From a virus (taxonomy: Duplodnaviria > Heunggongvirae > Uroviricota > Caudoviricetes), in the IMG/VR virus record IMGVR_UViG_2711768062_000003, positions 1 to 40,741 of that record: a stretch of 40,741 nt of DNA; one strand, 5' to 3'. Each line of letters opens with the position of its first letter. The stretch's first letter is position 1. Below are positions 6,744 to 15,997 of the stretch, in pieces. The notes beneath the pieces were generated by a model. That model saw nothing but the letters and a program-made list of their open reading frames with translations. It was not told the origin of the DNA and did no database searches. The position numbers and the translations under genes were made by a program.

Positions 6744-6984
6744 GATGTTCTCCAGTTTTTCTGAGTGAACTTCGCTGGTGGTGCCGCGGCGCTGATCTTC
6801 ACGGTTGAGCGTTTTAACTCTGCAATTCACCACCGCGAAGCTCACTCTGTGCTTTGCCCTTGTCGCCAGGCTGGCGGAACGTTTCAAACCTACTGCGCGT
6901 TAATCTCACCACCTCATTCCGGTCTTCGTATGCCCCGGACGGCTTCTTCGTGGGCGTCCTGCTTTGGTGGTTGTGTTGATGGAG

Positions 6985-7030
6985 TAATTAAACACAATGT
7001 TTATTTGCGTGTCAACATAATGAGTGTTTT
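6985..7030. promoter_or_regulatory. Operator-like inverted repeats (candidate OL) related to the PR/PRM operators
   Basis: AAACACAATGTTT and AACATAATGAGTGTT share AACA(T) ... (A)TGTT half-sites with the palindromes at 9034-9072. Confidence 0.3.
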
Positions 7031-7127
7031 TATATAAACAAAAAGTTTAGTTGGTTGCGCTCGTTGGCACGAGTAGTATGTTTTGTGGTCTATTTTGTGG
7101 TTATAAAAAAATCGATGAGGGTGAGTT

Positions 7128-7334
7128 ATGGATCGTGACGAACTGGAAGAAGACCGCGCAGCGTTTATTGCGGGGGAGATTGGTGGCGCAGTTGTCAGTC
7201 TGATAGCTAACGGGATTGTGATCAGCCGCGATGCGATTGTGGATAGTCTAGAGGCTAAGCGCAGGGTAGTGGGAAACGTCATTCACAAGTGGGTATTGCG
7301 GGATGCGGTTGCTATGGTGAGAAAAGGGCAATAA
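7128..7334 (+). CDS. Hypothetical small protein
   Basis: 68-aa ORF; GAGGG SD before ATG; candidate sigma70 promoter TTGGTT-17-TAGTAT upstream; ends at a bidirectional terminator. Confidence 0.5.
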   Translation: MDRDELEEDRAAFIAGEIGGAVVSLIANGIVISRDAIVDSLEAKRRVVGNVIHKWVLRDAVAMVRKGQ

Positions 7335-7370
7335 AAAACCCAGTTCGGTAACTGGGTTATTGCTTTATTC
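7331..7370. terminator. Rho-independent terminator (bidirectional; strongest for the minus-strand operon)
   Basis: AAAAAACCCAGTT-cggta-AACTGGGTT stem-loop flanked by A-run on one side and T-rich run on the other, between convergent genes. Confidence 0.7.
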
Positions 7371-7823
7371 AACAGATGATGGGGGGGTCGGTGCTTTCTT
7401 AAAGATCGACCACTGAGAAATGTAGGTCAGCAACCTTGAGCTTAACTCGAGTTCTTTTCGTAATATTTCGTCATAACGTTTTTTTGCTGCTTGCATGGTC
7501 GCATCACTAGCGTGATTGTCATCCATAATGATCTTTAGCCTTTTCTTTTCTCGGCTTGAGCATATTGTAAATAACAGACCTGTAAATGACATTCCACCAA
7601 AATCCTTTAACGTTTTGATTACAAAAAGAAGAATCAAAGACAGAAAAGGAACAGATCTGTAGGCCCAATCACGAAACTCACCGTCAGGAAAGAAGATAGG
7701 AATAGCATCTGTAGCATAACCACATATGAGGGAGACAATTAGAAAAGGTAGTCCATTTTTAGCTACATTTTTAACGTTATCGTTAGCCATGATTTTTTCC
7801 CGAGAACGATTTCGAGTCAACAT
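7365..7823 (-). CDS. Small membrane protein (about 3 predicted TM helices), accessory operon gene 3
   Basis: ORF of 152 aa (probable start MANDNV, 141 aa); hydrophobic stretches LPFLIVSLICGYATDAIPIFF, SVPFLSLILLFVI, MSFTGLLFTICS; AT-rich. Confidence 0.6.
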   Translation of the reverse strand: MLTRNRSREKIMANDNVKNVAKNGLPFLIVSLICGYATDAIPIFFPDGEFRDWAYRSVPFLSLILLFVIKTLKDFGGMSFTGLLFTICSSREKKRLKIIMDDNHASDATMQAAKKRYDEILRKELELSSRLLTYISQWSIFKKAPTPPSSVE

Positions 7824-8166
7824 GTAACTTTTGTGTTTTGACTACATAATACGCAAATCCAATCTTAACTAACCAATAAGCTACTGGTATGAGTGCTGCG
7901 TAAAGAGGGATATAGTACATAACCTTACCTCCTGTTAACCACACTATAACACCTAGCATCACTATTAGCGCGACAGAAAATGCTTTCAGCCCAACACAGC
8001 TATCAGGATGTGAAACACTGTTCCTTAGCAACAATACCCTGGATTCATCAAGTGTGTAAGGAATATCGCCAACATGATTTTCGATTTTTGGGAAGGTCTC
8101 AAATACTTCAACCCGATCAATCGAAATAATTGAGCTTGATTGATGATCTAAGCAAACTGCAGCCAC
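7783..8166 (-). CDS. Small membrane protein (2 predicted C-terminal TM helices), accessory operon gene 2
   Basis: 127-aa ORF; hydrophobic stretches AFSVALIVMLGVIVWL and YYIPLYAALIPVAYWLVKIGFAYYVV; start 3 nt from upstream stop; AT-rich. Confidence 0.6.
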   Translation of the reverse strand: MAAVCLDHQSSSIISIDRVEVFETFPKIENHVGDIPYTLDESRVLLLRNSVSHPDSCVGLKAFSVALIVMLGVIVWLTGGKVMYYIPLYAALIPVAYWLVKIGFAYYVVKTQKLHVDSKSFSGKNHG

Positions 8167-8168
8167 TG

Positions 8169-8492
8169 TTATCCCTCTCGAACCTTTAGTGATACTCGGT
8201 TAGCAGCAAATGTGGCAATGAAACCACATTCTACACATATAACAGGGAATGCCCATATACCTCGGCCAGCTGAATGAGGTAGAGGAAGGGTAATTATTGC
8301 AGGATAGTCTTGACTATCTTCTCGTGGAGGAACTCCCCAAAGCGTATGCTTACAAAGCGGACAGGCCATCTCGCCATGTTTTTCTTCGAGGCGTTGAAAA
8401 TAATCTCGAAATTCTTGTCTTGATATTGATAGCGTCAATGCTGTTGTATTGACACTTTCCTGACTTTTTTCTTCTTCAACCTGTTCGCCCAT
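8169..8492 (-). CDS. Zn-ribbon protein with acidic N-terminus, accessory operon gene 1
   Basis: ATG at 8492 (GAGAG SD); CPLCKH ... VICVECGF gives CxxC ... CxxC; candidate promoter TTCACT-17-TATATT upstream; AT-rich. Confidence 0.6.
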   Translation of the reverse strand: MGEQVEEEKSQESVNTTALTLSISRQEFRDYFQRLEEKHGEMACPLCKHTLWGVPPREDSQDYPAIITLPLPHSAGRGIWAFPVICVECGFIATFAANRVSLKVREG

Positions 8493-8603
8493 CTCAGCTC
8501 TCAATATAATGATAATTAACTGGTAAGTGAATTTTGCATATCGTTAAGATGTATCCCATTGGTACAGAAACATCTGAGGGGTAAGTAGCTTTTAACTACC
8601 GTG

Positions 8604-8999
8604 CTACTCACCATCCCCCTTAATCCGCCGTCCCATGTACTTGGCGTACAGTTCATCGAGTTCTTTCAACCGTAGAGATACGATCCGCAACATGTTCTGT
8701 TGTTCTTCTTCGTTTGGGAGTTGATTATAGAGTTCCAACAGTCTCCGTTCGTCGTGTCTCAAACCGTCCTTAGCATCCACGTCCTGACCTAGAACCCACT
8801 CAAGACTTACGCCTAGCGCATCGGCAAGTTTTATTGCTGAGCTTTTTCCTATCGCTCCTCTGACAAACCAGTTGTTGACTGATTGTGCGCTCACACCACA
8901 GATTCTCGCTATATCCGCTTTGGATATGCGCTTCTTCTCGATGATTTCATTTAACCGCCGAACCTGCGGGTTATCTGTTTGGTGTGTGTTTTTTCTCAT
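8604..8999 (-). CDS. CI-like phage repressor (XRE-family HTH, no S24 peptidase domain)
   Basis: 131-aa ORF; HTH signature ISKADIARICGVSAQSVNNWF; divergent from cro-like gene across a palindrome-rich intergenic region; almost leaderless start. Confidence 0.8.
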   Translation of the reverse strand: MRKNTHQTDNPQVRRLNEIIEKKRISKADIARICGVSAQSVNNWFVRGAIGKSSAIKLADALGVSLEWVLGQDVDAKDGLRHDERRLLELYNQLPNEEEQQNMLRIVSLRLKELDELYAKYMGRRIKGDGE

Positions 9000-9007
9000 A
9001 TATCAAG

Positions 9008-9078
9008 ATTCTAAACTAAAAGTTTATCGCCTCAACATTCATAATGTTGACTTGAACATAAACATAATGTTTAATTTG
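9008..9078. promoter_or_regulatory. Immunity switch region: divergent PRM-like and PR-like promoters with palindromic operators
   Basis: Palindromes AACATTcatAATGTT (9034-9048) and AAACATaATGTTT (9060-9072); PR candidate -35 TTGACT (9047-9052) / -10 TTTAAT (9070-9075); PRM candidate on minus strand -35 TTGAGG / -10 TAGAAT 8 nt before the repressor ATG. Confidence 0.55.
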
Positions 9079-9102
9079 GTTCGTTATTACTTGGAGCCAA
9101 AT

Positions 9103-9336
9103 ATGAAAGCACTTGATAAAGCAATATGCATCGTAGGGGGTGCAACCCGTTTAGCAGAAAAGCTCAATGTATCCCCAATGACGGTCAGTCACTGGCGTCA
9201 CCGTGACAATGGATTCGTACCGGCTAACCGTGTCATTCCTATTTTCAATGCTACAGGTGTAACTCCACATGAGTTACGCCCTGATTTGTACCTCAACCCT
9301 ACGGATGGATTACCGGCTCAGGAAGCGAGGGCATAA
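9103..9336 (+). CDS. Cro-like regulator (YdaS/Cro family HTH)
   Basis: 77 aa, MKALDKAICIVGGATRLAEKLNVSPMTVSHWR pattern; GGAG SD; the ORF track shows a longer frame but this ATG has the SD. Confidence 0.7.
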   Translation: MKALDKAICIVGGATRLAEKLNVSPMTVSHWRHRDNGFVPANRVIPIFNATGVTPHELRPDLYLNPTDGLPAQEARA

Positions 9337-9338
9337 CC

Positions 9339-9878
9339 ATGCAGTCACTATCACTTCATCAAAATAGCGGATATCAAACGGCTGCGATGATAAATCGCAA
9401 TCAACCTGTCTCGGTAGATAAACATGACCAGATCCGCGATGCCGTTCGTGCGTGGGCGGGTGTAGATGGTCAGGATGTCGTTTCTGCTCTGATCATCGAA
9501 GAGTACCAGGCTCAAGGGGGAGACGAGATCACTTTCCCTGATGACCTCAGCCGACAGCGTCAGAAGCTTTTCCGCTTTCTGGATAACCATTTCAACAGCG
9601 AACGGTACCGCGAAAACGTTCGCCAGCTGACTCCGGCAATCCTCGCTGTCCTGCCGATTGAATACCGCAATCGTCTGCTACCAGAAGACAACGTAATGGC
9701 TCGTCTGGCAAGGCTGGAGAAGGAAACCAGCGAAGCGAAGATTGCTGTCGCAATGGATGCGCCACGTCATCAGAAGCTGAAAGAGTTGAGCGAGGGGATC
9801 GTGGAGATGTATCGCGTTGACCCTGGGTTAACCGGTCCGTTGATGGAAATGGTGCAGATTATGCTGGGGGCTATATGA
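9339..9878 (+). CDS. YdaT-like / CII-like early regulatory protein
   Basis: 179-aa ORF directly after cro-like gene as in Rac ydaS-ydaT; family assignment from recalled pattern only. Confidence 0.5.
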   Translation: MQSLSLHQNSGYQTAAMINRNQPVSVDKHDQIRDAVRAWAGVDGQDVVSALIIEEYQAQGGDEITFPDDLSRQRQKLFRFLDNHFNSERYRENVRQLTPAILAVLPIEYRNRLLPEDNVMARLARLEKETSEAKIAVAMDAPRHQKLKELSEGIVEMYRVDPGLTGPLMEMVQIMLGAI

Positions 9879-11797: not shown

Positions 11798-11898
11798 AAT
11801 GTCCGAGTTTCAGAACATGGTGTAACAAATCCTGCTACTTCAATGACGTAGATTCAAACCTGATATAATTAGGCTCTTCACAACACGAGGAGCCTAAA

Positions 11899-12135
11899 AT
11901 GCACCATTACATGATCCCTATCAACGGAACTGTTCACCTGATCAAGACTGACTCTCTAATCCCTGAAGGGACTGAGTATAGCTTTGAAGGAGAAAGTCTA
12001 ATCTGCGCTCATGCCACTTTTAAATCTGGGACGTATGGCTTCCTGATACCAAAGGGAAATCAGTTGAATAGAGAGCATGCGTTCTGGCATGTAAGTGGAA
12101 TTCACCCTAATCCCCTGGGAATGGATAAATCGTAA
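11899..12135 (+). CDS. Hypothetical protein (AT-rich moron)
   Basis: 78-aa ORF with GAGGAG SD; AT-rich segment between GC-rich flanks. Confidence 0.5.
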   Translation: MHHYMIPINGTVHLIKTDSLIPEGTEYSFEGESLICAHATFKSGTYGFLIPKGNQLNREHAFWHVSGIHPNPLGMDKS

Positions 12136-12143
12136 TCCATAAT

Positions 12144-12180
12144 ATGCATGCCATCGTCCTGAACATACGGTGGCATGCAT
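12144..12180. repeat. Perfect 10-bp inverted repeat ATGCATGCCA / TGGCATGCAT with 17-bp spacer
   Basis: Read directly; begins 9 nt after the stop of the 78-aa ORF; no T-run follows. Confidence 0.5.
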
Positions 12181-12404
12181 CCGGCACTACAACAGAAACG
12201 TTAAAGTGCAAACAATACAATTCGAGCAATATTCAACCTGTCACAGATGGCGAATACCACCGCCATTTCGTGCATTCTGTGGTTTCTATTACCCATTGCG
12301 TTAATGCTGTCCAATCATCAGCTCGCTGAGGCGCTGGTTAGGGCTAACCTACAGGAGCTTTGTCAGCAGAAACAAATAGCGGCGTAATAAAACATCGCTA
12401 ATTC

Positions 12405-12431
12405 AACCCGCTACGGCGGGTTTTCTTTTTT
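12405..12431 (+). terminator. Rho-independent terminator
   Basis: CCCGC-tacg-GCGGG followed by TTTTCTTTTTT. Confidence 0.7.
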
Positions 12432-12494
12432 TACTACTGACAGAAAATTAACAATTTGTGCTCTTAAAGCGTTGATCATTTCCGCGCATAGGTA

Positions 12495-12514
12495 TACTGT
12501 ATAAAAACACAGTA
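12495..12514. promoter_or_regulatory. LexA (SOS) box upstream of the dinI-like gene
   Basis: TACTGTATAAAAACACAGTA matches CTGT-N8-ACAG consensus; lies between candidate -35 TTGATC and the start codon. Confidence 0.7.
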
Positions 12515-12532
12515 AATGCAATGGGGGCCATT

Positions 12533-12766
12533 ATGAAAGTTGAATTAACCATTGATCGCATGAAAGAACTTCCTAAAGGCGCAGTACCAGCACTGGAGAA
12601 AGAACTGCTTAAGCGCCTGAATGATCACTATGACAATTGCAGGCTCACAATCCGCCGTGCCGGGGCCGATGGGTTAAGTGTTTTTGGTGGTGACAAGGAC
12701 GATAAAAAGAAAATTGAATCAATCCTCCAGGATACCTGGGAAAGCGCTGACGACTGGTTTTATTAG
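12533..12766 (+). CDS. dinI: DinI-family protein (SOS-induced RecA modulator homologue)
   Basis: 77 aa; MKVELTIDR ... LSVFGGDKDDKKKIESILQDTWESADDWFY closely matches the DinI family C-terminus (QETWESADDWF); LexA box upstream. Confidence 0.8.
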   Translation: MKVELTIDRMKELPKGAVPALEKELLKRLNDHYDNCRLTIRRAGADGLSVFGGDKDDKKKIESILQDTWESADDWFY

Positions 12767-12883
12767 AATTGCGCTTAAGGCTGGCGCGCATTTTTCAGAA
12801 TACCGCAATTTGCGTAACCCTCTGATGCTGCTGCCGACAATCTTTAATCGCGTCTGTTAGTCGCTCGAAGGGAGAACATAAAT

Positions 12884-13132
12884 GTGAGTGATTCAGCTTT
12901 GCAAACGTCAGAAGACAACTGGTATGACATTGTAAGAAGGTCTGACGGCTGCGTGGTGTTTAGCTTTCCTTCATCGGGCAGGCATCTAATTTATCGCGTC
13001 AATGGCATGGTTTCTATGCGGCCTTTGCTGGATGATGAAGAGGTCTTTACTCCTAATGGTTTTATGCAGTTTATTAACCGTCTCGGCTACCGGGTAACCC
13101 AACCTTCTGATAATATGAAATCAACGGTCTGA
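12884..13132 (+). CDS. Hypothetical protein
   Basis: 82-aa ORF with GTG start and GAAGGGAG SD. Confidence 0.45.
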   Translation: MSDSALQTSEDNWYDIVRRSDGCVVFSFPSSGRHLIYRVNGMVSMRPLLDDEEVFTPNGFMQFINRLGYRVTQPSDNMKSTV

Positions 13133-13166
13133 ACAACCGTAACCTACTGCGCCACGGAGAGAAACC

Positions 13167-13766
13167 ATGGCGCACGAACTACAACTCATCAAGCAGTCAT
13201 CAGGAATCCTGATCCCCGCGACGCCGGAGACCAGCGATATTCTGCAATCAAAAATCAAACTCGGCGCCGTGCTGGTAGCCGACTTCAAACAGGTCCGCAA
13301 TCCGGCTTTCCACCGCCGCTTCTTCGCGCTTTTAAACCTCGGGTTCGAATACTGGGAGCCAACCGGCGGGGCGATCTCTTCCAACGAACGCAAGCTGGTG
13401 ACCGGCTATGCCAGATTTCTGGCCTCCTACGGCGGGAACGAAGGGGCGCTGCTGGATGCCGCTGAGCAATATCTCGAGCGCATCGCTGATAAGCGCACGG
13501 GCAGCATCAGCGCCTGCAAGTCATTCGACGCCTACCGCGCCTGGGTAACCATCGAATCCGGCCACTACGACGCGATACAGCTGCCTGACGGCACCCTCCG
13601 CAAACACCCCCGCAGCATCGCCTTCGCCAATATGGACGAAACCGAGTTCCAGCAACTCTACAGGGCCGCACTCGATGTTCTGTGGCGTTGGATCCTGTCC
13701 AGGGCATTCAAGAGCCGTAGCGACGCGGATAATGCCGCTGCGCAGCTCATGAGCTTCGTGGGGTGA
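13167..13766 (+). CDS. Conserved lambdoid nin-region protein (DUF1367-like, function unknown)
   Basis: 199-aa ORF; GGAGAG SD; coding-like composition; family recalled but unverified. Confidence 0.65.
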   Translation: MAHELQLIKQSSGILIPATPETSDILQSKIKLGAVLVADFKQVRNPAFHRRFFALLNLGFEYWEPTGGAISSNERKLVTGYARFLASYGGNEGALLDAAEQYLERIADKRTGSISACKSFDAYRAWVTIESGHYDAIQLPDGTLRKHPRSIAFANMDETEFQQLYRAALDVLWRWILSRAFKSRSDADNAAAQLMSFVG

Positions 13767-13972
13767 TGCCGATGAAAGAAACATGGTTCCAGCACACCGA
13801 GTGCACCACGCAGCAGGCCGACGAGCTCATGGCGGAATACCGGCGCCGCGGCGTGAAGGTAGAGCGAAGCCTGAATCCCGATTACGTCACCTGGACCGTC
13901 AGCGCCCGGCTGCCGGAGGCGCACCGGCAGGAACGTACGCCGCGGTCACTCCGTCAGAAGGTCTGGGGGTGA
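13763..13972 (+). CDS. Hypothetical small protein
   Basis: 69-aa ORF; ATGA overlap with upstream stop. Confidence 0.45.
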   Translation: MMPMKETWFQHTECTTQQADELMAEYRRRGVKVERSLNPDYVTWTVSARLPEAHRQERTPRSLRQKVWG

Positions 13973-14624: not shown

Positions 14625-14761
14625 CATCAGAACTGATTGAGGTAATCCGCATGCGCTGGACACGCCTCCGCATTTATCGCCGCCCGGGTTCGGTGCTGGT
14701 GGACTACCGCATTCTTCGCAATTTTATTCGCATTAACCAGTTGGCAGGAGCTGCTGCATGA
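14621..14761 (+). CDS. Possible 46-aa translationally coupled ORF between rusA and Q
   Basis: ATG overlaps rusA stop and its TGA overlaps Q start (ATGA junctions at both ends); basic, no homology known to me. Confidence 0.25.
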
Positions 14762-15588
14762 ACCTCGAAAACACCGTGAAATACCACTTCGCCAAATCGA
14801 CGCTGATTAGCGACTCTCCGCGCGCTACGGCCTCCGACTCGCTGACCGGAACGGACATCATGGCAGCCATGGGCATGACCCAGGAACGCGCCGCCATGGG
14901 CTACAGTGCCTTTCTCGGAAAGATGGGCATCAGCAACAACGATCGGGAGAGAGCGATCGAGCTGCTGGCCCAGTATGCGCTGACAAAATGCGATAGCGTG
15001 GCTGCCCTGCGCAAACTGGACGCTGGGGTTAAACCGCTGGTGATGCGCCAGCTTGCTACCTTCGCTTTTGAGGACTATTCCCGCAGCGCCGCCAGCGTCA
15101 AGAGGTGCGAATGTTGCGCAGGGCAGGGGTTCATTGAGGCTGACGTTTTTAGTATGAAAACCAGCATCTCTGGCTGCGCAAAAGACATCATTCAAAAATC
15201 AAAAAAATGGGGGCTGAAGGTTATCCCTTCGCAGCATCAGAATCGGCGTGAGGTGAAAGAGGTGGCCCGGGTGCTGTGCTCGGCCTGCAAAGGGAAGACG
15301 GTCGTCAGCTGCGCATGTAATGACTGCCAGGGGCGCGGAAAAGCTGTCAGCAAGACGCTGACAGAAAAGCAGGGCGCGCCGGTGATGGCCGACTGCAAGC
15401 GCTGCGGCGGGCGCGGGTATGAGCGGATCCCCTCGACTGAGGCATATGCGGCTGTTTGCCTTATTACCGACGCCATTACTCTGGACACCTGGAAAAAGTC
15501 AGTGAAGCCGTTTTACGACCGGCTGATCACCAAATTCGACATGGAAGAAGCGTGGGCCGAATCGCAACTGCGAGCAATAACTCGATAA
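14758..15588 (+). CDS. Late-gene antiterminator (Q-like, Cys-rich Zn-finger type)
   Basis: 276-aa ORF located immediately upstream of the late promoter region and lysis cassette; multiple CxxC pairs (CECCAGQG, CSACKGK, CNDCQGRG, CKRCGGRG). Confidence 0.6.
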   Translation: MNLENTVKYHFAKSTLISDSPRATASDSLTGTDIMAAMGMTQERAAMGYSAFLGKMGISNNDRERAIELLAQYALTKCDSVAALRKLDAGVKPLVMRQLATFAFEDYSRSAASVKRCECCAGQGFIEADVFSMKTSISGCAKDIIQKSKKWGLKVIPSQHQNRREVKEVARVLCSACKGKTVVSCACNDCQGRGKAVSKTLTEKQGAPVMADCKRCGGRGYERIPSTEAYAAVCLITDAITLDTWKKSVKPFYDRLITKFDMEEAWAESQLRAITR

Positions 15589-15653: not shown

Positions 15654-15968
15654 CTCTCCAACGATGGGTTACTGCCTTCGTTTAAAGCCCTGCGGTTAAC
15701 CCCGCGGGGCTTTGCCGTTTCTGGAGGGTATGAAAATGTAGAGTAGAACGGACACACCGTAGCCGAAAGGCAATGCAGCAGTCATGATGCTGCCCCGAGT
15801 CGCCATTGAGCGAGCCTGTGTAGTGACGGGTCAGGGTTCATAGATTAAAAATAGCTCCGGTAAAGCAGCGCGAAAGCCAGACGCGCACCGGTGATAAGCG
15901 GCGATGATGCGACAGCAGCTCAAGGGCATGAGCGTGGCCACTCCGGGAAGTGGCAAAGAATTTATAGA

Positions 15969-15997
15969 GGCTCGCATACGCGGGCCTTTTCTTTTTC
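15969..15997 (+). terminator. Candidate rho-independent terminator in the Q-S intergenic region (tR-prime-like)
   Basis: GGCTCGC-atac-GCGGGCC hairpin followed by TTTTCTTTTTC. Confidence 0.45.

Follow-up and report, generated by a model that had tools for sequence, protein, structure and literature searches.

The region 12405-13766 of the DNA analyzed here (40,741 nucleotides, hereafter the window) is very probably an SOS-responsive induction module of a lambdoid prophage of the Gifsy/Rac type in Escherichia coli, that is, an E. coli copy of the already described Gifsy-type DNA-damage switch. The sequence itself shows the LexA box and its conservation, the identities and order of the genes, homologs of GfoA, GftR and IrsA, and a repressor that lacks a cleavage domain. 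Unless noted otherwise, the features described below are on the plus strand.

The mechanism that we propose for the module is as follows. In the lysogen, host LexA would occupy the box at 12495-12514 and with it the candidate -10 element, thereby silencing a three-gene unit that consists of dinI, a gfoA-type antirepressor gene and an irsA homolog. Upon DNA damage, RecA would be activated, LexA would cleave itself and the unit would be transcribed. The 82 aa antirepressor would then bind the short, non-cleavable repressor encoded on the opposite strand, probably via the C-terminal domain of the latter, and once the repressor is off its operators, the lytic program would begin. DinI would be made alongside the antirepressor and play an accessory role.

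Organization of the locus and its prophage context

[quoted passage not shown] The module occupies the position of the nin region, 3' of the replication genes, with the LexA box located about 0.94 kb past the end of gene P (11557). The prophage repressor gene (8604-8999, minus strand) is divergent from two genes that encode a Cro-like YdaS protein (9103-9336; pfam PF15943, E = 7.6e-16) and a YdaT protein (9339-9878; PF06254, E = 1.9e-25). Judging by these family assignments, the repressor gene and the ydaS-ydaT pair (9103-9878) constitute an immunity region of the Rac/Qin/Gifsy type. The original prediction that this DNA belongs to a prophage is correct.

The third gene of the unit (13167-13766) encodes a DUF1367 protein (PF07105, E = 6.4e-93) that is 85% identical to STM2620, the LT2 copy from Gifsy-1. 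The primer used to delete irsA in the Gifsy study (PMC3121763) encodes MAHELQLIKQS, which is the N-terminus of this protein and identifies the gene as the irsA homolog.

The predicted antirepressor gene

The second gene of the unit is a GTG-initiated ORF encoding 82 aa (12884-13132) that is homologous to the gene for GfoA, the Gifsy-1 antirepressor, as indicated by primer matches and position. Of the published gfoA primers, one matches the start of the ORF (20 of 23 nt, at 12884) and another a site close to its end (33 of 40 nt, at 13075). The ORF is also 91% identical to a TTG-initiated 82 aa ORF that occupies the equivalent place in Salmonella Gifsy-type prophages and is matched by the same primers; the identity to GfoA is based on two primer-derived stretches combined with the position and the non-AUG type of the start codon. 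The ORF belongs to phrog_340, a PHROG family shared with Rem, the 83 aa antirepressor encoded by the cryptic prophage Qin of E. coli K-12, which has been shown experimentally to relieve repression by DicA, a short repressor of the DicA/Gifsy type (bioRxiv 10.1101/2023.04.14.536235). The pairwise BLASTP comparison with Rem is not significant, and the connection is made only through the shared PHROG family. The rem gene differs from the window ORF in that no signal is known to induce it and LexA control has not been reported.

GftA, the antirepressor of Gifsy-2, was considered as a direct relative and rejected: the BLASTP comparison was not significant and hhalign returned E = 4.8e-4 with a probability of 32%. 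Because this similarity is marginal, the ORF is linked to known antirepressors through GfoA and is not filed with GftA. No pfam family matched the 82 aa protein, nor was there any sequence match among solved structures. The AlphaFold model, which is of moderate quality (pLDDT 66), consists of four strands and one helix, and found no meaningful match among PDB structures (best E = 2.9), so that it offers no clue to the mechanism.

In the Gifsy prophages, expression of nothing but the small ORF led to prophage induction, and the antirepressor is both sufficient and necessary for induction and binds the repressor (PMC3121763). Replacement of the box region with PBAD abolished induction by mitomycin (PMC3121763). 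The LexA dependence, the sufficiency and necessity of the antirepressor and its binding to the repressor can be expected to hold in this E. coli prophage as they do in Salmonella. By this analogy, the 82 aa ORF, rather than DinI, is most likely the gene that wakes the prophage and is the predicted inducer.

The ORF is found in 14 phage records, where those that are annotated all label it "hypothetical". In PHROGs, too, as in every annotated public record examined, the antirepressor gene is labeled as hypothetical or is assigned no function, and the switch has been overlooked for this reason: annotators see only "DinI" and miss the induction switch. The main value of the present assignment is in annotation and in the prediction of prophage behavior.

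The repressor and its link to the antirepressor type

The predicted target of the antirepressor is the 131 aa prophage repressor, which consists of an N-terminal HTH domain and a short C-terminal domain. In the pfam search, only HTH families matched this protein, with no match to Peptidase_S24, the self-cleavage domain. Since the repressor lacks such a domain, RecA would reach the prophage only indirectly, via LexA. The repressor is homologous over its full length to GftR, the repressor of Gifsy-1/-2 (27% identity, E = 1e-9), and its C-terminus, AKYMGRRIKGDGE, corresponds to AKYMSRRIKGEGA, which is encoded by the gfhR tagging primer. As with the CI-type repressors of lambda and P22, the process would start with the activation of RecA by DNA damage and end with the loss of repression. 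The difference is that the window repressor has no S24 domain and that the signal would be relayed by LexA and an antirepressor, a route that is reversible in principle.

The type of the repressor C-terminal domain goes with the type of the antirepressor across phages. In the 25 related loci that encode an antirepressor of the window type, the C-terminal 48 aa of the repressor are on average 83% identical to those of the window repressor, whereas the identity in the HTH part drops to 43-49%. Loci with other antirepressor types encode repressors with other C-termini (29-40% identity); the exception to this pairing is one of the seven loci of type C (L121). The antirepressor region of E. coli CRE444 shows 100% identity to that of the window, and the repressor encoded there combines a divergent HTH half with a nearly identical C-terminal half. 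This pattern suggests that the C-terminal domain is probably the surface contacted by the antirepressor, although the link could, in part, reflect physical linkage of the genes rather than contact.

Prophages of this family should respond to DNA-damaging antibiotics via LexA and a diffusible antirepressor, not via repressor cleavage. This mode of induction would let one prophage induce heteroimmune neighbors that share the repressor C-terminal domain, and such cross-induction of heteroimmune prophages has been shown for Gifsy-1 and Gifsy-3.

The DinI homolog and its role

The first gene of the SOS unit, dinI (12533-12766), is preceded by a Shine-Dalgarno sequence (GGGGG, 12523-12527) and encodes a 77 aa protein. 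The assignment to the DinI family made in the original prediction is firmly supported: the protein matches PF06183 over positions 1-63 of 63 (E = 3.8e-26; 91.6 bits compared to a cut-off of 24.2) and PHROG 189, "RecA filament binding protein DinI" (E = 1.1e-26), and aligns over residues 1-76 with the structures of E. coli DinI (PDB 1GHH and 7YWA, E = 9.5e-18). The acidic C-terminal helix is conserved (ILQDTWESADDWF in the window protein, with ILQETWESADDWF as the counterpart in E. coli DinI; motif ILQ-TWESADDWF). The window DinI is a single-domain protein, 66% identical to the Gifsy-1 DinI, and covers only positions 71-148 of the 151-position PHROG 189 profile. An alternative start, ATG at 12521 (81 aa), was rejected: this codon is GTG, TTG or ACG in relatives and has no Shine-Dalgarno sequence; the real start is the ATG at 12533. 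The start coordinate originally given, 12473, falls on the conserved candidate -35 hexamer (12472-12477).

Given its location behind a strong LexA box that probably overlaps the promoter, dinI is very likely to be SOS-induced. The homologous Gifsy genes are controlled by LexA, and nalidixic acid raises their expression 4.6- to 23-fold. The chromosomal dinI of E. coli encodes a protein of the same fold family with the same C-terminal helix, and its LexA box overlaps the promoter. This gene is, however, a distinct paralog, and is monocistronic, with no antirepressor gene following it.

DinI presumably binds RecA filaments, and one could envisage that DinI itself is the functional output of the module, a RecA modulator that is made on DNA damage and tunes either prophage induction or the SOS response of the host. 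In favor of this view, the DinI domain is complete and retains the acidic C-terminal helix that contacts RecA. A coupling of DinI to LexA-controlled antirepressors is also seen in unrelated phages, where the two are fused (Tum of phage 186) or split (PSP3 and Fels-2), or DinI is encoded upstream (Gifsy); such a recurrent association suggests a real role. Furthermore, induction by an antirepressor is reversible in principle, so that the duration of RecA activation could matter. Nevertheless, we consider this interpretation unlikely because the repressor has no RecA-dependent cleavage domain, leaving LexA as the only path from RecA to this prophage, and because, in Gifsy, the antirepressor is enough for induction on its own. 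Non-polar deletion of dinI in Gifsy changed neither the level nor the rate of induction significantly (PMC3121763, where the data are not shown). The proposal that DinI tunes the induction of its own prophage thus finds no support in the closest tested system, even if such an effect is possible under other conditions, for example, in the reversal of induction. Of the earlier reading of this locus, the prophage, the DinI homolog and the SOS box stand, whereas the functional emphasis on DinI does not: the antirepressor ORF is most likely decisive, and DinI, by analogy with Gifsy, is most likely an accessory product, not the trigger of induction.

Tum of coliphage 186 provides a parallel case, with a LexA-repressed promoter, an antirepressor and DinI module, and induction without repressor cleavage; long forms of this kind are included in the PHROG profile for DinI. 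However, Tum is a fusion protein of about 146 aa with a DinI-like C-terminal half, whereas the window DinI is a separate protein of 77 aa, with the antirepressor gene located 117 nt downstream. Phage 186 is P2-like, whereas the window phage is lambdoid.

The spacer between dinI and the antirepressor gene

The 117 nt spacer (12767-12883) contains a palindrome, CGCAATTTGCG, an invariant block, GATGCTGCTGCCGACAAT, and a Shine-Dalgarno sequence, AAGGGAG (12868-12874). The spacer is represented by 25 variants over about 150 loci. Its first 95 nt are 90-92% identical to the Salmonella Gifsy sequences, compared to 67% for the dinI coding sequence and 76% nucleotide identity for irsA. The spacer is thus unusually conserved, above the level of the flanking genes, and even the antirepressor family on one side of it has diverged or been swapped.

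There is some possibility, which we put forward tentatively, that the segment 12767-12861 is a functional cis-acting or RNA element, either a leaky terminator or attenuator, or a small RNA derived from the 3' UTR. A precedent for the latter is DinR, a small RNA derived from the 3' UTR of the chromosomal dinI of Klebsiella. A weak hairpin (12770-12788; -7.8 kcal/mol, 6 pairs including a G-T) is followed by five T's (12791-12795), and some of the transcripts could terminate there without reaching the antirepressor gene. If such an attenuator exists, it would set the ratio of DinI to antirepressor, such that commitment to lysis occurs only under sustained SOS. No Rfam family was detected in the window, nor in the locus at a permissive threshold, and the window spacer folds no better than shuffled sequences (z = 0.32). 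Sequestration of the Shine-Dalgarno sequence was rejected for the window-type spacer, for which RNAalifold predicts a long-range helix with one-sided changes only; the pairing probability of the Shine-Dalgarno sequence is 0.53 in the window spacer compared to 0.78 in shuffled sequences, and 1.0 compared to 0.75 in gftA-type spacers. A short peptide ORF in the spacer (MLLPTIFNRVC) was rejected as well, having no Shine-Dalgarno sequence and, by eye, a mixture of synonymous and non-synonymous substitutions among the variants.

The same hairpin raises the question of whether transcription from the LexA-controlled promoter reaches the antirepressor gene at all. If dinI were a self-contained moron ending at 12770-12795, the downstream ORFs would be LexA-independent and transcribed, for example, from the early-right or an internal promoter. 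A terminator-like hairpin directly 3' of the dinI stop codon and a strong terminator 5' of the unit, the latter being typical of morons, are compatible with such an arrangement, which we nevertheless regard as quite improbable. The hairpin is weak, with only five T's, and several relatives have a broken T run or none at all; the sigma-70 scan detected no promoter between 12767 and 12883. In Gifsy-2, where the spacer is 83-90% identical, PBAD placed upstream of dinI made induction dependent on arabinose, and deletion of the LexA box region abolished induction by mitomycin; because both manipulations control induction, transcription has to cross the spacer in that prophage.

The LexA box and the candidate promoter

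The LexA box, TACTGTATAAAAACACAGTA (12495-12514), is a 20 bp sequence that is found once in the window and matches the E. coli LexA consensus, TACTGTATATATATACAGTA, in 17 of the 20 positions; the three differences are all in the central A/T spacer, and the CTGT-N8-ACAG core is intact. It is the sole site in the window within three mismatches of the consensus, with none expected (100 shuffles). The bare core occurs once compared to 0.52 expected occurrences, which by itself is not significant, and therefore the identification of the box relies on the full 20-mer and its conservation. Among related loci in IMG/VR, the 65 whose upstream sequence is usable all have the box at the equivalent position, 49 of them identical to the window, with all differences confined to the central spacer; a further locus (L061) contains the box as well, bringing the count to 66 of the 66 related loci that have upstream sequence. 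[quoted passage not shown]

A candidate -35 hexamer, TTGATC (12472-12477), is invariant in the upstream alignment and is located 17 nt, the optimal spacer length, before TACTGT or, alternatively, 15 nt before TATACT. The -10 hexamer is likely to be TACTGT (12495-12500), that is, the first six bases of the LexA box, so that the conserved TTGATC-17 nt-TACTGT arrangement places the candidate -10 element inside the operator. A generic sigma-70 scan called no promoter in 11800-13800; hence the promoter is assigned from sequence conservation and by reference to the Gifsy alignment in the literature. The promoter sequences of the window and Gifsy are about 55% identical at the nucleotide level. The claim of a near-perfect SOS box in front of dinI therefore holds, based on the unique 17/20 match and the presence of the box in all 66 loci, and the conserved arrangement makes its overlap with the candidate promoter likely. 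Although 0.52 occurrences of the bare core would be expected per window, the possibility that the box arose by chance or is a relic without a regulatory role can be practically dismissed given that no full 20-mer within three mismatches is expected, that its distances to the -35 hexamer and to the ATG are fixed, that the box is kept in 66 of 66 loci while the adjoining spacer bases vary, and that the homologous Gifsy boxes have been shown to be LexA-dependent.

Upstream of the promoter, an intrinsic terminator (12405-12432) with the stem AACCCGCTACGGCGGGTT (7 pairs, 5 of them G-C; -12.8 kcal/mol) and a long T run is kept in nearly all related loci and shields the SOS unit from upstream early-right transcription. 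For all Gifsy prophages, Lemire et al. (2011; PMC3121763) reported the same kind of terminator-like palindrome ahead of the LexA box. Between the terminator and the promoter, just 5' of the -35 hexamer, the alignment of 46 unique upstream sequences reveals a nearly invariant block, TTAACAATTTGTGCTCTTAA (12449-12468), which could be an UP-element-like sequence or a second regulatory site.

Relationship to the Gifsy prophages and distribution

The closest counterparts of the window locus are those of Gifsy-1 and Gifsy-3 of S. Typhimurium ATCC14028 (repressors GfoR and GfhR; Lemire, Figueroa-Bossi and Bossi, 2011, PMC3121763), which share the order dinI-gfoA/gfhA-irsA, the 19 bp between box and ATG, the similarity of the antirepressor (91%), IrsA (85%, relative to the LT2 copy of Gifsy-1) and DinI (66%), and a short (about 130-140 aa), non-cleavable HTH-type repressor with a matching C-terminal tail. 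The window locus differs in its host, E. coli, in the start codon of the antirepressor gene (GTG compared to TTG in Gifsy), and in the divergence of dinI (about 67% nucleotide identity) and the promoter (about 55%). In addition, the replication genes are of the lambda O/P type in the window and of the DnaC type in Gifsy. Gifsy-2 and the LT2 version of Gifsy-1 (dinI-gftA-irsA, with GftR) have the same architecture, with a spacer that is 83-90% identical and a repressor with 27% identity, but GftA belongs to phrog_4847, in contrast to phrog_340 for the window ORF, and the C-terminal domain of GftR is of another type. The prophage family is present in 52 of the 5,426 complete E. coli genomes; its further carriers include phage mEp237, and relatives are found in Salmonella, Klebsiella, Citrobacter and Enterobacter.

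A probable Gifsy-type induction module

The window is a lambdoid prophage that begins with an integrase gene, followed in order by RecE/RecT-type genes, a Rac/Qin/Gifsy-type immunity region, lambda-type O and P genes, the nin region (RusA, Q), lysis genes and head genes. The relevant published system is the LexA-controlled operon of the Salmonella prophages Gifsy-1, -2 and -3 (Lemire et al., 2011; PMC3121763). The repressors of these prophages are short, lack a cleavage motif and remain uncleaved during induction, which requires cleavage of LexA. [quoted passage not shown] The gene responsible for induction is a small non-AUG ORF that lies between dinI and the irsA homolog and encodes a repressor-binding antirepressor (GftA, GfoA or GfhA); prophages of Escherichia and other enterobacteria share a conserved dinI-irsA region (PMC3121763).

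Exactly the same order is found in the window, namely terminator, LexA box, dinI, a GTG-initiated 82-aa ORF and a DUF1367 gene. The DUF1367 protein (13167-13766, plus strand), the irsA homolog, is 85% identical to Gifsy-1 STM2620, and its N-terminus, MAHELQLIKQS, is the sequence encoded by the published irsA deletion primer (PMC3121763). Judged from its sequence, the locus is a known kind of system, the Gifsy-type LexA/antirepressor induction module, in an orthologous E. coli copy. In the lysogen, LexA would sit on 12495-12514 and block the promoter; upon DNA damage, activated RecA would stimulate LexA self-cleavage, and loss of LexA would allow transcription of the dinI-antirepressor-irsA unit, with co-production of DinI. 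The antirepressor would then titrate the repressor from its operators, and lytic development would start.

LexA box and candidate SOS promoter

The LexA box, TACTGTATAAAAACACAGTA (12495-12514, plus strand), agrees with the E. coli consensus TACTGTATATATATACAGTA in 17 of its 20 bases, the three mismatches all being confined to the central A/T spacer. No other site in the 40.7 kb window comes within three mismatches of the consensus, and none is expected in shuffled sequence. The CTGT-N8-ACAG arms by themselves are expected by chance about once per two windows, so the significance of the box rests on the full 20-mer and on its conservation. Among related IMG/VR loci, all 65 whose upstream sequence was usable have the box in the same place; it is identical to that of the window in 49, and changes in the others are confined to the central spacer or the last base. 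A further locus, L061, also has the box.

The promoter region was delineated from an alignment of 46 distinct upstream sequences of related phage contigs. Conserved in this alignment are a strong intrinsic terminator (12405-12432, -12.8 kcal/mol), a candidate -35 hexamer, TTGATC (12472-12477), and, 17 nt beyond it, TACTGT (12495-12500), the first LexA half-site. TACTGT is conserved throughout and is the likely -10 element, so bound LexA would occlude the -10 region; the alternative -10 sequence TATACT, with a 15-nt spacer, is missing from some relatives. No SOS promoter was called at the LexA box by the generic promoter scan, and the assignment therefore rests on conservation and on the published description of putative -35 and -10 motifs on either side of the LexA box in Gifsy prophages (PMC3121763). 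Directly 5' of the -35 hexamer lies a nearly invariant 20-bp block, TTAACAATTTGTGCTCTTAA (12449-12468), which is kept even where the neighboring sequence changes; it may act as an UP element or bind another regulator.

The probable antirepressor gene

The candidate antirepressor is the 82-aa ORF at 12884-13132 (plus strand), which matches no Pfam family and is a "hypothetical protein" in every annotated phage or E. coli record examined. Four lines of sequence evidence tie this ORF to GfoA. First, the gfoA primers used for PBAD placement and tagging, which encode MSNSALQ and RRLGYRVTPPSDI (PMC3121763), match it at 20 of 23 nt at the start (12884), where the primer carries ATG in place of GTG, and at 33 of 40 nt near the end (13075). 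Second, Salmonella Gifsy-type contigs contain, at an equal distance after dinI, a TTG-initiated 82-aa ORF that starts with MSNSALQK and includes RRLGYRVTPPSD, the two proteins being 91% identical. The third line is the irsA neighbor, and the fourth is membership in PHROG 340 (E=4.5e-20), to which Rem of the cryptic E. coli K-12 prophage Qin also belongs (E=4.4e-21). Rem relieves repression by DicA, a Gifsy-like repressor, as demonstrated experimentally (bioRxiv 10.1101/2023.04.14.536235). Similarity to GftA is marginal and GftA belongs to a different PHROG, so the window gene is placed in the GfoA/GfhA/Rem group. The AlphaFold model comprises four strands and one helix at moderate confidence (pLDDT 66), and neither the model nor the sequence showed resemblance to solved structures. 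The GfoA, Rem and GftA families (PHROGs 340, 1813 and 4847) are labeled 'unknown function' in PHROGs and have no Pfam family; the annotated phage and E. coli records examined still call them 'hypothetical protein' despite experimental characterization in 2011 and 2023.

In phage contigs whose DinI shares at least 83% identity with that of the window, dinI is invariably followed by a small GTG-initiated ORF, and these ORFs fall into three types: A, to which the window ORF and GfoA belong; B, which is GftA-like; and C, which is 44% identical to A. Nearly all antirepressor-type ORFs after dinI (types A, B and C and a Salmonella variant of C; related loci L007-L247) begin with GTG or TTG, and in four Salmonella loci the same ORF is called in a shorter, ATG-initiated form. 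Starting at a non-AUG codon (GTG in the window, TTG in the Salmonella gfoA gene) probably limits how much antirepressor is made. In the window, the antirepressor GTG is overlapped by an out-of-frame ATG-TGA 'start-stop' (12882-12887) that is not conserved in Salmonella.

The dinI gene and the transcription unit

The dinI homolog (12533-12766, plus strand; 77 aa) starts at ATG 12533, which is preceded by a GGGGG stretch (12523-12527). An in-frame ATG further 5' (12521) was rejected as the start since relatives have GTG, TTG or ACG there. The protein covers the whole Pfam PF06183 model (91.6 bits, E=3.8e-26) and also matches PHROG 189. It is similar to E. coli DinI, whose structure has been solved (1GHH/7YWA, E=9.5e-18), and keeps the C-terminal helix ILQDTWESADDWF. 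In Gifsy-1, -2 and -3, the dinI homologs respond to nalidixic acid with 23-, 14- and 4.6-fold rises.

Conceivably, dinI could be a stand-alone moron that ends at the hairpin and T5 run at 12770-12795. This hairpin, however, is weak (-7.8 kcal/mol), the T run is interrupted or absent in relatives, no consensus promoter was found in the dinI-antirepressor spacer, and in Gifsy-2, whose spacer is nearly identical, induction can be driven from a PBAD promoter upstream of dinI (PMC3121763). For the proposed joint transcription unit, no plus-strand terminator-like site was found between this hairpin and the strong terminator at 15966-15989 (plus strand), just 3' of the Q antiterminator gene (14758-15588), so transcripts from the LexA promoter might in principle run through irsA, DUF1364, rusA and ylcG into Q.

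The dinI 3' end and the following spacer are ~90% identical to Gifsy-1 and Gifsy-2. The spacer is better conserved than its neighboring genes: its first 95 nt (12767-12861) are 90-92% identical to Salmonella Gifsy prophages, against 67% for the flanking dinI CDS and 76% for irsA at the nucleotide level. For the antirepressor, identity is 90% to gfoA-type loci, and gftA-type loci cannot be aligned. Besides the weak hairpin and T5, the spacer contains a palindrome, CGCAATTTGCG, and an invariant block, GATGCTGCTGCCGACAAT; an Rfam search of it gave no match. Possible roles are a leaky attenuator, a dinI 3'-end small RNA, for which DinR of Klebsiella is a precedent (PMC10907235), or a conserved junction for module exchange. 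Sequestration of the antirepressor Shine-Dalgarno sequence was not supported by folding tests for the window type.

The original prediction of a DinI-family gene behind a LexA box is confirmed as real and non-random by the unique 17/20 20-mer, the PF06183 match and conservation; its interpretation, a RecA modulator that tunes induction, is partly right but missed the key gene of the locus, the probable antirepressor. That DinI is itself the main point of the locus appears quite unlikely: DinI modules do recur beside LexA-controlled antirepressors in unrelated phages (fused in 186 Tum, split in PSP3 and Fels-2; PMC3121763) and the PHROG DinI profile covers long forms, but non-polar deletions of dinI or irsA in Gifsy-1 and Gifsy-3 caused no significant change in the level or rate of induction (PMC3121763, data not shown), and the window repressor cannot be a RecA substrate. 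Given this recurrence and the long forms, a role of DinI under other conditions is possible, for example in shaping the duration of LexA cleavage and thus whether reversible induction is completed.

Repressor and proposed antirepressor specificity

The repressor candidate (8604-8999, minus strand; 131 aa), divergent from YdaS-type Cro and YdaT genes, contains a helix-turn-helix domain only; no S24 self-cleavage domain was found. Its alignment with GftR of Gifsy-1/-2 spans the whole protein (27% identity, E=1e-9) and includes the C-terminal LL-L-NQLP motif, and its tail, AKYMGRRIKGDGE, resembles that of the gfhR tagging primer, AKYMSRRIKGEGA (PMC3121763).

In every type A locus with a repressor within reach (25 loci), that repressor ends in a C-terminus of the window type. 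Its final 48 aa are on average 83% identical to the window protein, and in 14 of the 25 the HTH part is only 43-49% identical. In a modular comparison of the window repressor with those of L004 (9208-9591) and L088-L167, the C-terminal ~50 residues (…LLELYxQLPEEEQQNMLRIxSLRLKELDELYxKYM…) are 71-100% identical in 24 of the 25 type A phages and 50% in L107. Types B and C are, with one exception, paired with other C-termini (29-40% identity to that of the window). E. coli CRE444 carries an antirepressor region with 100% identity to the window, together with a repressor that is divergent across much of its DNA-binding half and almost identical from residue 82 on. These patterns fit an antirepressor that recognizes the C-terminal domain of the repressor and could act on heteroimmune prophages, as GfoA acts on both GfoR and GfhR (PMC3121763); physical linkage may contribute to the pairing. 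The modular repressors further suggest that heteroimmune prophages with one antirepressor specificity could cross-induce.

Six related DinI loci (L135, L139, L141 and L146-L148) have no recognizable type A, B or C antirepressor, and their DinI match spans 76 residues without the usual C-terminal motif. Two of these, L147 and L148, encode GftR-like repressors with yet other C-termini, so that further antirepressor types may exist.

Distribution and mosaicism

Over the 781 bp around the box and dinI, identity is 99% with coliphage mEp237 and 86% with Salmonella phage SEN34. This segment is present in 52 of 5,426 complete E. coli genomes, as a single, always chromosomal copy. At the nucleotide level, the immunity region 6978-9253 with its repressor gene matches neither mEp237 nor the CRE444 prophage, which is otherwise collinear. 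The flanks of the region match them at 83-99%, a typical mosaic pattern that points to exchange of the immunity cassette. Between replication gene P and the terminator lies a low-GC insert (11899-12387) with a 78-aa ORF (11899-12135; PHROG 30079, 'unknown function'; gp47 of mEp237, where a promoter is annotated upstream) and a 46-aa hydrophobic ORF (12247-12387), which looks like a separate moron-like unit.
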